Source: a virus
Virus record (IMG/VR): IMGVR_UViG_3300025280_000022
DNA length: 64,000 bases
Direction: 5' to 3' (one strand)
Positions 3,204 to 35,619 of the stretch are shown piece by piece. The position numbers and the translations under genes were made by a program. Position 1 is the stretch's first letter, and each line of letters starts with the position of its first letter. The notes under the pieces are model-generated. The model saw only the letters and a program-made list of their open reading frames with translations. It did no database searches and was not told the origin of the DNA.

Positions 3204-3404
3204 ATGAAACCAGTCAAACCATTAAAGTCCGTGGTTAATATAGCGCCTAATGCGCTTATTGATCCTCTTGTTAATAAGTGGGTGCTAGAGTGGTGCAAAA
3301 AATACCATCCTGAAGCAGTCGAAGAAGCGCAGAAATTTGTCAAAGAATATTTAGCAAAAATGGAGGCAATAGAACGGGTTCGACCTCGTCAAGGAGGAAT
3401 TTAA
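3204..3404 (+). CDS. hypothetical protein
   Basis: ORF track; ends immediately before tRNA. Confidence 0.6.
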   Translation: MKPVKPLKSVVNIAPNALIDPLVNKWVLEWCKKYHPEAVEEAQKFVKEYLAKMEAIERVRPRQGGI

Positions 3405-3479
3405 AGCAGAGTGGAGCAGAGGCAGCTCGTCAGGCTCATAACCTGAAGGTCGCGGGTTCGATTCCCGCCTCTGCAACCA
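3405..3479 (+). tRNA. tRNA-Met(CAT), initiator-like
   Basis: Cloverleaf with GCAGAG/CTCTGC acceptor, TCAGG-CTCATAA-CCTGA anticodon arm, GGTTCGATTCC, encoded CCA; 1:72 mismatch and A11:U24 are initiator features. Confidence 0.95.
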
Positions 3480-12846: not shown

Positions 12847-14028
12847 ATGAAAAAATTACCTATATTATACAAATTGGACTCGAAGGGCAAAACCAGAGAA
12901 TGGACTATTTGTTCTGACGCAAATGAATTTTGGAGCGCACAAGGAATTGTGGGCATGAAGATACGCCAGAATAATCCTACTGTCTGCGAAGGCAAAAATA
13001 TTGGGCGCAGTAACGAAACCACTCCCGAAGAACAAGCGGAATTAGAGGCTCAAGCGAAGTGGGAAAAGAAGCGCAAGGATGGTTACACCCAAGATATTGA
13101 CCAAGTAAAACAAAAAAAGTTTTATGAACCTATGTTGGCGCAGGATTTTAAGAAGCGAGAAAAGGAATTAGTTTATCCCCTATATTCTCAACCCAAACTA
13201 GATGGGGTAAGGTGCATCATCCGAAAAGAGGGGGATAAGATTATCGCTCGCACTCGCAAGGGTAGGGTAATTGATTCCATTCCCCATATCAGCGAAGGAT
13301 TGCAGGGGTTTTTCTTGGCTTATCCAGATTCCATTTTAGATGGAGAACTTTATAACCATGAATATAGAAATAATTTTAATGCTATAATTTCTTTAGTGAG
13401 AAAGCAAAAGCCTGTTCGCACTAAAACGGATAGCGATGAATCTTTCGATAAAAAAGAAAAGGCGTGGAAGAAGGCGTTGCTCCAAAGCGCAGGGAAAGTA
13501 GAATATTGGGTTTATGATTCCCCTCGTATAGATTTTTTGAGAGAAAACCATTATTTTACAGTTCGTAGGGCGCATTTAGAAGAGCATCTAGGCCATGTCT
13601 CTAACAAGAGCATCCAACTCCTAGAAACCTCGGAAGCGTGGAGCAAACAAGCGTTAGATGCTAACTATGAAGATTATCTTGGACGAGAGTTTGAGGGACA
13701 AATAATTAGACAGGACGAGAGTTACGAATCCAAGAGAAGTAAATACTTATTAAAACGCAAAGAGTTCCAAGATGCTGAATACAAGGTGCTTGACATAGAA
13801 GAAGGAAATGGTAATCGCCAAGGAACCGCAAAGCATCTAGCGTGTTTCTGCGAGAAAACGCAAAAGACATTTAATTCTAATATAAAAGGAACTTTTGAAT
13901 ACTTAAAAGAAATCTTGGAAAATAAGGAGGATTACATTGGCAAATATGCTACAATTAAATTCTTTCAATTAACTCCAGACGGAATCCCAAGATTTCCTTA
14001 TGCGATAGCTTTTCGAGATTACGAATGA
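12847..14028 (+). CDS. ATP-dependent DNA ligase (copy 1)
   Basis: Motif I PKLDGVRC, LDGELY, EGQIIR, LLKRK, PRFP. Confidence 0.93.
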   Translation: MKKLPILYKLDSKGKTREWTICSDANEFWSAQGIVGMKIRQNNPTVCEGKNIGRSNETTPEEQAELEAQAKWEKKRKDGYTQDIDQVKQKKFYEPMLAQDFKKREKELVYPLYSQPKLDGVRCIIRKEGDKIIARTRKGRVIDSIPHISEGLQGFFLAYPDSILDGELYNHEYRNNFNAIISLVRKQKPVRTKTDSDESFDKKEKAWKKALLQSAGKVEYWVYDSPRIDFLRENHYFTVRRAHLEEHLGHVSNKSIQLLETSEAWSKQALDANYEDYLGREFEGQIIRQDESYESKRSKYLLKRKEFQDAEYKVLDIEEGNGNRQGTAKHLACFCEKTQKTFNSNIKGTFEYLKEILENKEDYIGKYATIKFFQLTPDGIPRFPYAIAFRDYE

Positions 14029-29882: not shown

Positions 29883-31070
29883 ATGATAAAACTTGAAACA
29901 CTATACAAGGTAGATTCCGTGGGGAAGCTACGAGAATGGACAATGGTAATTGACAGCAATTCTTACCATGCCGTAAAAGGACTTGTGGACGGCAAGAAAA
30001 CCACAGACAAACCAAGAGTTGCCATTGGCAAAAACATTGGTCGCACAAATGCAACAACCAATGAAGAACAAGCGGGACTTGAGGCACAATCTCGTTGGGA
30101 AAAGAAATTGAAAGCAGGTTACGCCCAGACTCTCAAAGGAGCAGAGTCGAAAAAATTCTACGAACCGATGCTCGCCCAAAAGTTTGAGGACAGAGAAGCA
30201 ACATTGGAATATCCAGTTTATTCGCAACCAAAACTTGATGGGATTAGGTGCATCGTTCAGAAGAAGAATGGTAAGATTGTCTCACACACAAGAACTGGTC
30301 GCGAGATTGAAACAATTCCCCATATCCTTGAGGAACTGAAGTTTTTCTTTGACCTGTATCCAAACGCTGTTCTTGATGGCGAACTATACAATCACGCCCT
30401 AAAGAGCGATTTCAACAAGATTGTTTCCCTTGTGAGAAAGCAAGTGCCTGTTCGTTCTGAAAAGCAAACAGATAAGGCTTTTGCCAAAAAGGTGCAAGCC
30501 TTTAAGGAACGCATGGTAGAAGCAAAGGCAATGATTCAGTACTGGGTTTATGATTGTCCACGCATAGGGGAACTAGATGAATCAAACACATTTGCCGAAA
30601 GGTTTGAAAAGGTGTCGAACCAATTTGAATTGGGCAATCCTTTTCCAGACGGAATTGTGCTTGTGCCTACCGAAAACATTTCGGACAAGGAAACTCTTGA
30701 CGAATTTTATGCAGAGTGGCTCAAGAAAGGGTTTGAAGGTCAGATGGTTCGCAAGGATGCCTCATATGAAAACAAGCGGAGTGCTACCCTTTTGAAGCGT
30801 AAAGAGTTTACGGATGCGGAGTATAAGGTGCTTGATATTGAAGAAGGCGATGGCAATCGTACTGGAACTGTAAAGCATTTGGTATGCTATTGCCCCACAA
30901 CGGACAGAACCTTCAATTCCAACGTCAAGGGCAACTTTGAATATCTCAAGGAGATTCTGGACAATCGAGAATATTATATCGGTCAACTCGCAACCATAAA
31001 GTTTTTTGAGTTGACTCCTGATGGGATTCCTCGCTTTCCGTTTGCCATAGCATTTAGGGATTATGAATAA
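29883..31070 (+). CDS. ATP-dependent DNA ligase (copy 2)
   Basis: PKLDGIRC, LDGELY, EGQMVR, LLKRK, PRFP; collinear paralog of 12847; leaderless promoter 29849. Confidence 0.93.
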   Translation: MIKLETLYKVDSVGKLREWTMVIDSNSYHAVKGLVDGKKTTDKPRVAIGKNIGRTNATTNEEQAGLEAQSRWEKKLKAGYAQTLKGAESKKFYEPMLAQKFEDREATLEYPVYSQPKLDGIRCIVQKKNGKIVSHTRTGREIETIPHILEELKFFFDLYPNAVLDGELYNHALKSDFNKIVSLVRKQVPVRSEKQTDKAFAKKVQAFKERMVEAKAMIQYWVYDCPRIGELDESNTFAERFEKVSNQFELGNPFPDGIVLVPTENISDKETLDEFYAEWLKKGFEGQMVRKDASYENKRSATLLKRKEFTDAEYKVLDIEEGDGNRTGTVKHLVCYCPTTDRTFNSNVKGNFEYLKEILDNREYYIGQLATIKFFELTPDGIPRFPFAIAFRDYE

Positions 31071-34902: not shown

Positions 34903-35175
34903 ATGCTCGACTTGAGTAACGTAGAAAAAATCACCGACCCAGAGGTCATCGCGCAGGACGCGTTCGACGCGGGTTGGGAGGGACGTCTCTCCTGTAACAT
35001 GCCCGCGCAGTATGCGGACGTGGGCAACAACTGGCGCATCTGGGCAGACGAATGGCAGTCTGGTCATCGTGACGCGCAGGACGATGTCGCCTACTATCGG
35101 GCGGACGCGCAGGGGCCAGACGCGACTGGCCAGAGTGACTGGGCGATGGATCAGTTCGTGGACGAGTCGCTTTAG
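34903..35175 (+). CDS. acidic hypothetical protein
   Basis: AFDAGWEG...P..Y......W..G; stop overlaps box edge. Confidence 0.65.
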   Translation: MLDLSNVEKITDPEVIAQDAFDAGWEGRLSCNMPAQYADVGNNWRIWADEWQSGHRDAQDDVAYYRADAQGPDATGQSDWAMDQFVDESL

Positions 35176-35245
35176 TTGGCTCTATTACTGGGCTGGCGGG
35201 CGGCGGGCCCTCCCGCCCCGCTCCAGGCCGCTCTATGACTGGGCT
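35174..35245. repeat. bipartite GC-rich element (inverted orientation)
   Basis: Boxes at 35174 and 35225. Confidence 0.92.
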
Positions 35246-35332
35246 GGCGGGCGAAAGTTTTTTAAAAAAACGCTTGACATCCTACCCCTATAGTATATTA
35301 TTGAAGGTAGTTAATTGAAAGACTTTTATTGT

Positions 35333-35478
35333 GGGGTCGTAGCTCAGATAGGTGAGAGCACCAGTCTACGCCAAGGGGGTTGATCTCCCCGAAACTCGCC
35401 AAGCATGAGGTACCGCTTGCAAGGTTGGGGGAAGCGATAATAGACTGGAGGTCGAGGGTTCGAGTCCCTCCGATCCCT
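35333..35478 (+). ncRNA. tRNA-like RNA with ~70-nt insertion in the anticodon loop
   Basis: Acceptor GGGGTCG/CGATCCC, D arm GCTC/GAGC, anticodon stem CCAGT/ACTGG, T arm GAGGG-TTCGAGT-CCCTC; own promoter TTGACA(35274). Confidence 0.85.
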
Positions 35479-35619
35479 GCTTTTTCTGTAGATCGAAAGA
35501 TTGAACAACGAGGCGTCAGCACACGCCTACAACCCTTCGGGGAGAGAGAAAAAGGTTCACAATTTAGTTGACATCTCGCACTTTTTACTGTAAAATTATC
35601 TTAAATCAAAATTAAAACC

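Follow-up and report, generated by a model that had tools for sequence, protein, structure and literature searches.

We have identified, in a 64,000-nucleotide stretch of viral DNA (IMG/VR record IMGVR_UViG_3300025280_000022, referred to here as the window), an RNA gene whose product is best read as a member of a widespread composite family of phage non-coding RNAs, for which we have found no description. The RNA combines a tRNA-like body, a folded domain where a tRNA has its anticodon loop, and a conserved four-way junction at the 3′ end. On comparative grounds it is rather probable that this is an unspliced tRNA mimic of ~255 nucleotides, which would pair with itself by kissing loops and carry the junction as a conserved effector domain.

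The source phage of the window is large and tailed, and encodes RIIA, a large terminase, a portal protein and two ATP-dependent ligases. The two DNA ligase genes are paralogous, lie in the same window (12847-14028 and 29883-31070) and encode 393 and 395 amino acids. Cultured phages reach at most 26% identity to the terminase, and the 5 kb around the RNA locus has no nucleotide match to cultured phages. The RNA gene sits in a hypervariable region, among small cassette ORFs without assigned function. GC-rich bipartite elements (35174-35245 and at other cassette borders, ~50% GC locally with a genome at ~40%) divide the region into promoter-headed cassettes, and the RNA gene is one of the cassettes bordered in this way. 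Relatives of the RNA come from marine metagenomes, Tara Oceans included.

A promoter with the boxes TTGACA (35274) and TATTAT had been proposed from the sequence alone, and it is borne out. The element at 35274-35301 (+ strand) is of sigma-70 type, matches the consensus at 11 of 12 positions and has a 16-nt spacer; together with the leader it is 82-86% identical in three related viral contigs (L001, L024 and L035). The 5′ leader, with its start inferred from the promoter, covers 35309-35332 (+) and its sequence is kept across the sub-lineage. The downstream limit of the gene is the promoter of the next cassette (35568-35596, +), again with 11 of 12 consensus positions. No intrinsic terminator was found on the + strand between the two promoters.

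The tRNA-like body, including its insert, occupies 35333-35478 (+). The Rfam tRNA model (RF00005) matches here over its full length with 52.3 bits (E 2e-8), and places a 76-nt insertion in the anticodon loop. All the tRNA elements that the sequence-only reading listed are present, namely an acceptor stem (35333-39/35471-77), a D stem GCTC/GAGC (35342-45/35356-59, in a D arm at 35342-59), an anticodon stem, a variable region AGGTC and a T arm GAGGG-TTCGAGT-CCCTC (35454-70). The discriminator is T35478 (U in the RNA), and inspection of the sequence agrees with that reading in that no CCA is encoded. The homologues keep U8, A14, the GG of the D loop and the GTTCGA T loop, the elbow nucleotides of a canonical tRNA; their acceptor stems and discriminator bases vary freely. 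ARAGORN, one of the checks proposed earlier, misses the body of the window in its default mode and finds it solely when introns are allowed. Another, an Infernal search of the locus against Rfam with both the gathering threshold and a cut-off of E<10, returned tRNA matches only and left the insert uncovered.

The seven-nucleotide anticodon loop of a tRNA, with U33 and a purine at 37, is replaced by a domain of 72-76 nt. The anticodon stem CCAGT/ACTGG is prolonged by CTA/TAG to give an 8-bp stem (35361-68/35441-48) that closes the inserted domain. This extended ‘anticodon’ arm (35361-35448, +) was read directly from the sequence, and it covaries between the window and three close insert homologues (L026, L034 and L134). 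The same architecture is found in these homologues for the inserted domain itself (72 nt, 35369-35440, +), which has no Rfam match at E<10. A CGC/GCG clamp (35369-71/35434-36) surrounds two hairpins and a conserved GGGGGAA strand. Hairpin a (35375-35390, +) has the form GGGGG-UUGAUC-UCCCC, with GGGUUGAUCUCC kept in five units, and its loop (35380-85) has a self-complementary GAUC core at 35382-85. Hairpin b (35400-35419, +) has a CAAGC/GCUUG stem and a 10-nt loop that hosts the palindrome GGUACC (35409-14), to which homologous palindromes exist in related inserts. The insert fold that had been suggested from the window, a clamp around two sub-hairpins (GGGGG/TCCCC, and one with the stem given here as CAAGC/GCTTG), recurs in homologues. 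The single-sequence fold energy of the window is not better than that of shuffles (z = -1.1 to -1.3), therefore the support for the structure of the insert comes from the comparison of homologues and not from thermodynamics.

The sequence-only reading took the RNA to end at 35480. It continues into a conserved four-way-junction domain of ~77 nt (35479-35555, +), which our covariance model, R1, matches with 77.5 bits (E 9e-21) as the sole match within the window. On the + strand, the closing helix P1 (35480-87/35547-54) is followed by P2 (35491-35502), the junction strand GAACAACGA (35503-11), P3 (35512-27), the junction strand UACAA (35528-32), P4 (35533-42) and the junction strand AGAG (35543-46). 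Across 56 diverse copies the consensus order is P1, UGUA, P2, GAACAACGA, P3, UACAA, P4, AGAGA and P1′. In the alignment of these 56 sequences compensatory changes occur in 13 of the 19 pairs, and the junction strands, ~24 nucleotides in all, are invariant. The length of the P3 loop changes by non-multiples of three, hence the region is not coding.

We found no named counterpart of this domain. Rfam has no family for the junction, neither at the gathering threshold nor at E<10, in searches with 16 bacterial loci and one canonical free-standing copy. A text search of a paper library for its invariant 13-mer returned no paper, although an IMG/VR survey of candidate structured RNAs (PMC10690425) may include the motif unnamed, and a comparison of the motif with cultured phage genomes gave one chance coding match only. 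A transfer-messenger RNA was considered and rejected, since the region is not coding and no member of the tmRNA clan matches at the window locus, in a search that did detect a phage-encoded tmRNA in one of the related viral contigs (L005). That tmRNA (L005:1237-1678; 136.5 bits in Rfam) is immediately preceded by a tRNA.

Two further features of the junction domain were observed. In three members (L068, L072 and L124) P2 is widened by an insertion of ~75 nt (GATGCATTGCGAAGAATGG...CCAATGCATC); this insertion is common to unrelated contigs, which indicates that P2 tolerates cargo. There is also a possible short pseudoknot between the P3 loop and bases 3′ of P1′ (35516-23 and 35555-60 in the window). 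Examples are a GGGA loop followed by a CCC tail in bacteria, and the combinations GUAC/GUAC and GAAC/GUUC in phages. Complements of at least 4 nt between the P3 loop and the tail occur in a proportion of 0.32 of viral copies versus 0.19 in permuted ones (8/1000), a weak signal; in the stand-alone set the complementarity is not significant. Intramolecular base pairs between the GAUC loop and the P3 loop were looked for by eye and rejected, as they show no covariation.

Related loci were first fetched through the neighbouring ligase, which produced two further over-long tRNA matches. The three initial loci have in common the promoter, the leader, the tRNA-like body and a strongly conserved 3′ trailer of ~80 nt; their inserts differ. 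An exact 21-mer spanning the junction of body and insert had no match in viral contigs, and the downstream 93-aa protein, used as a query, retrieved no related loci. A search with the core of the trailer, on the other hand, returned 104 viral stretches and 55 contigs of bacterial or archaeal genomes versus ~2 expected by chance. The distinct viral copies number 89. In 58 of these a tRNA-like body with an interruption (inserts of 15-111 nt) ends 18-30 nt ahead of the core, and in three the body is uninterrupted yet aberrant; most of the remaining 28 have a T arm just upstream. The number of distinct fused copies, with tRNA-like body and junction, exceeds 60 in viral contigs. Every phage genome examined has one copy of the RNA.

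In Patescibacteria, Saccharibacteria and a few other metagenome-assembled genomes the junction domain is free-standing. Such genes (e.g. L162:1990-2069:-, L146 and L177:4823-4901:+, among the contigs L129-L183) consist of a promoter, a junction of ~80-95 nt and a terminator. A promoter of the TTGAC(A/T) type is located at most 50 nt upstream in 22 of 34 free-standing copies, and a hairpin with a T-run at most 90 nt downstream in 27 of the 34. The free-standing RNA occurs once per genome and sporadically (3 of 151 sampled Patescibacteria), which makes it an accessory and not a housekeeping RNA; a housekeeping RNA of the Patescibacteria was rejected on the same count. No consistent downstream gene accompanies the free-standing copies, and a riboswitch was rejected for this reason. 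We also rejected an SRP-RNA-like reading of the free-standing motif, as there is no SRP match and no GNAR-capped helix 8.

Evidence that the body and the insert are under selection comes from the largest insert class (class A). For its 14 sequences an explicit structure was written and the pairs were counted. In total 96.7% of the cells are paired, versus 74.9% in shuffles, and none of 500 shuffles reaches the observed values. Both sides change in 27 of the 37 pairs, and controls in which the partner strand was slid all fall to ~40% paired. The covarying helices are the acceptor, D, extended anticodon and T stems and both hairpins of the insert. One could read the gene as a decaying tRNA pseudogene with a chance insertion, in line with its abnormal length and with a single-sequence fold in the window that is no better than shuffles. 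Compensatory covariation in every helix, the retained promoter and leader, and dozens of homologues make this scarcely credible, and we exclude it. The homologue comparison that the sequence-only reading had called for therefore shows covarying insert hairpins in place of unstructured inserts on a decaying body. Its idea of a natural tRNA-scaffolded RNA or tRNA mimic is supported, and the insert has no Rfam family.

The same reading had offered a tRNA-Arg, or a short intron of a new type, and here the comparison points the other way. Removing 35371-35441 would leave the loop CU-ACG-AG, so that a true tRNA-Arg(ACG) could in principle arise by excision of a new short intron and take part in decoding. 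A group I intron has a catalytic core of ~200 nt or more. The insert of 72 nt is too small for this, no group I core is present, and neither Intron_gpI nor any other Rfam family matches at E<10, hence a tRNA with a group I intron was rejected. A protein-spliced intron of the bulge-helix-bulge type is not supported either, as the splicing endonuclease (PF01974) and RtcB (PF01139) are absent from four RNA-bearing phage contigs, one of them rated 100% complete, and the anticodons at the exon junctions are inconsistent. The ACG context is not kept in homologues, even in the closest insert homologues (L026, L034 and L134). The anticodons that ARAGORN reports in intron mode are scattered, and include Pyl, SeC and stop. 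The equivalents of positions 32 and 33 are base-paired, and that of U33 is U in just 5 of the 14 class A members. No allele without the insert was found among ~20 close relatives, and the 3′ end of the body runs into P1 of the junction.

There is a published precedent for over-long phage tRNAs with unexplained ‘introns’. In the Lak megaphages, tRNA prediction in eukaryote mode revealed ‘enigmatic’ tRNA introns with conserved inserts (Devoto et al. 2019, PMC6784885). Compared by description only, these differ from the window RNA in that alleles with and without the insert both exist, whereas none without it was seen here. The Lak inserts are described only as introns, and neither a fused 3′ domain nor self-complementary loops are reported for them. 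Excision to give a decoding tRNA-Arg is, in our judgement, very improbable, and we infer that the RNA stays unspliced in vivo.

The position of the junction recalls the theta ribozymes, small conserved RNA domains that likewise begin where a phage tRNA-type gene ends, and that have a catalytic C in J4/2 (Kienbeck et al. 2024, PMC10879173). It could be argued that the junction is their functional counterpart, given this position relative to the tRNA 3′ end (PMC10879173), the ~24 invariant junction nucleotides and the sporadic spread over phages and unrelated bacteria. The folds differ, however: the 56 sequences describe an unknotted four-way junction closed by P1. An HDV-like fold is a nested double pseudoknot and requires P4/P2 strands. 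Nothing 3′ of P1′ could form these strands and such a fold is incompatible with the one supported by covariation, so it was rejected for the junction domain. No match to the HDV family was found in Rfam, nor to any ribozyme family at E<10. The nucleotides 5′ of P1 are not conserved, and in free-standing copies transcription is predicted to start at P1, which leaves nothing to cleave. We therefore regard a theta-like ribozyme as an improbable account of the junction.

Our preferred reading, a self-pairing tRNA mimic, draws on the self-complementarity of the insert loops. The hexamers in the loop of class A are ACUAGU, UCUAGA, ACAUGU and CCUAGG, all of them palindromic. Columns that mirror each other in these hexamers are complementary throughout (100%), with swaps of AU/UA/CG and of UA/AU. 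The upkeep of palindromes through symmetric double changes is seen in three separately aligned insert classes. In the class of the window, the position in hairpin b is taken by GGUACC (window), UCUAGA (L026 and L034) or GUGCAC (L134), and in the third class by GCUAGC, ACUAGU or GAUAUC. Two nearly identical RNAs (L001 and L195) differ by a change of CCUAGG to UCUAGA, a double change at two symmetric positions. The second loop of class A reads (C/U)UGAUCA, with GAUC invariant in 14 of 14 sequences. Its equivalent in the window is UUGAUC at 35380-85, and this first loop of the window, UUGAUCU, is self-complementary over 4 bp only.

Counts of palindromes point in the same direction. In 47 non-redundant inserts there are 81 palindromes of 6 nt, versus 54.7 +/- 7.1 in dinucleotide shuffles (1 of 2000 reaches 81), and 45 of the 47 inserts host at least one, versus 32.6 expected. 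The body outside the insert is depleted (36 versus 52.7 expected). As AT-rich shuffles give ~1.2 palindromes per insert by chance, the enrichment by count is moderate, and in single-sequence minimum-free-energy folds only 29 of the 81 palindromes are mostly unpaired.

Within a single molecule, a looped palindrome of 6 nt has no way to pair with itself, and pairing between copies is therefore the simplest reading. In two inserts (L017 and L022) two copies of ACUAGU pair intramolecularly, like a monomeric version of the proposed contact, which is consistent with the partner of the hexamer being another copy of itself. Self-association via palindromic loops is the best-supported mechanistic inference from these sequences, and we hold it to be slightly favoured by the evidence.

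Natural RNAs that associate in this way exist. Of these, ROOL and GOLLD often lie near tRNA genes. Together with manA they are structured RNAs linked to phages which oligomerise by intermolecular kissing loops (manA, bioRxiv 10.64898/2026.07.01.735769; ROOL and GOLLD, PMC12286853). The palindromic loops of the window family predict the same contact and are maintained by covariation. The two groups differ in that no sequence or Rfam relation connects them, the window RNA is built on a true tRNA body, and its assembly is predicted from sequence alone.

The central module evolves differently from its surroundings. Between the window and L001, L024 and L035 the trailer is 88-90% identical, close to the 82-86% of promoter and leader, and the central module 53-58%; for L001 and L035 the values are 97% for promoter and leader, 98% for the trailer and 69% for the central module. 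By these identities the central module appears as the swapped or fast-evolving part of the RNA. Such a pattern might reflect an arms race. In this scenario, which the sequence-only reading had already raised, the RNA would be a decoy, a tRNA-shaped body without a cleavable anticodon loop that sequesters an anticodon nuclease of the host, a tRNA-modifying enzyme or some other defence protein that binds tRNA. It suits an RNA with intact elbow and acceptor and no anticodon, in which the flanks of the central module change far more slowly than the module itself among close relatives, and whose gene is placed among small ORFs in a hypervariable cassette region. It is also compatible with self-pairing, which would add avidity. 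A decoy does not explain the near-invariant junction, the free-standing bacterial form of that junction or the constraint on the palindromes. Acceptor stems and discriminators vary freely, hence no single tRNA identity is mimicked, and no defence or anti-defence partner was found. We consider a decoy function rather unlikely.

In the window P1 starts 1 nt past the discriminator, so that the 3′ end of the body is not free. The last five nucleotides of the leader, ATTGT (35328-32), pair with ACAAT (35559-35563, +) to form a helix, P0, whose 3′ strand lies 4-9 nt past P1′ in the sub-lineage of the window. Exact 5-mer complementarity of leader and tail is found in 16 of 53 units versus 4.2 +/- 1.8 when permuted (0 of 2000), with seven types of pair. 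The energy of a global leader/tail duplex is not significant (p = 0.29); the boundary 5-mer helix alone is.

The wiring varies in some family members. In L066 a tRNA-like body hosts the junction motif (3385-3468, -) within its anticodon arm. In L103 (8046-8122, +, and ~100 nt upstream) the motif comes after a tRNA-like domain that is circularly permuted and has its acceptor stem capped by GAAA. In L084 (5182-5264, -), L089 and L127 it follows tRNA-like bodies that are uninterrupted but still aberrant, in that position 33 is a G in L089 and L127 and the T loop of L084 reads UUAAAAU. From L066 and L103 it follows that what is conserved is the physical coupling of the tRNA-shaped and junction modules.

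These observations also bear on whether the tRNA-like part is just a handle, for excision by RNase P and RNase Z or for stabilisation, with the junction RNA as the sole functional product. MALAT1-mascRNA and the tRNA-miRNA transcripts of gammaherpesviruses would be parallels. The junction RNA does occur without the tRNA part in bacteria, it starts 1-2 nt past the discriminator, where RNase Z would cut, and CCA is not encoded. A mere handle has, however, no need of a covarying two-hairpin arm with maintained palindromes. Release by RNase Z would fail in L066, where the junction is inside the anticodon arm, and in L103, where the body is permuted, and the leader/tail helix points to an intact composite RNA. 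A role confined to processing is in our view unlikely.

Coupling of a tRNA-like module to a second conserved module is known from the bacterial Y RNAs (YrlA, RF02553), partners of Ro60/Rsr (Chen et al. 2014, PMC4201824), whose TROVE gene is usually adjacent. L103 resembles YrlA in its topology as well, with a permuted acceptor closed by a loop, though this holds for rare family members only. The window RNA differs, with a normal tRNA topology, no GNCGAA(N)G motif and no match to RF02553. A TROVE/Ro60 gene was found in none of four RNA-bearing phage contigs and none of five bacterial genomes, in searches that detected the positive controls.

A parallel in setting is provided by species 1 and 2 of phage T4 (rnaC and rnaD; NC_000866 70908-71171). 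These too are stable phage RNAs with tRNA-like features, a T arm and an acceptor-like end, encoded among phage tRNA genes. The junction model R1 does not match the T4 tRNA region, however (best 5.6 bits). The Rfam tRNA model does not recognise rnaC, which gets 17.5 bits to tRNA-Sec, compared with 52 bits for the window RNA, and neither a second conserved domain nor palindromic loops are seen in the T4 RNAs. Judged by these comparisons, rnaC and rnaD are analogues in kind and not homologues.

The preferred reading can be put together as follows. The tRNA-shaped body, with its intact D/T elbow and acceptor, probably confers tRNA-like stability and recognition. The folded arm replaces the anticodon loop, and its GGUACC and GAUC-core loops would kiss between two or more copies, so that the working form of the RNA would be a homodimer or small oligomer, with the variable hexamer serving as a lineage-specific address. 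The leader/tail helix would close the transcript, and the ‘acceptor stem’ would then probably be an internal helix. The near-invariant junction, fused 1-2 nt past the discriminator, is presumably an effector, and would bind to a conserved partner from the cell or the phage.

A bolder version of this model is offered tentatively. The RNA may form a tRNA-scaffolded, self-assembling particle of dimers or closed, even-numbered rings. The hexamer might be a self-code that keeps the RNAs of co-infecting phages apart, and the junction could represent a new class of effector, possibly catalytic or tRNA-binding, which is shared by marine phages and Patescibacteria.

Odd stable RNAs of phage tRNA regions are a long-known phenomenon, of which this family is a large example whose members can be aligned and covary strongly. 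Genes of this type escape ARAGORN in its default mode and can be misannotated as intron-containing tRNAs. The four-way junction, with ~24 invariant nucleotides and a distribution over phages and candidate-phyla bacteria, is a candidate for a new RNA class. The design lends itself to testing: the body is that of a true tRNA, the self-complementary loops resemble addresses, and the presumed effector domain can be separated and occurs alone in bacteria. Few natural RNA homo-oligomers are known, and if the self-pairing is real the family would add a small and tractable one, as well as a natural counterpart to the tRNA scaffold devised by engineering.
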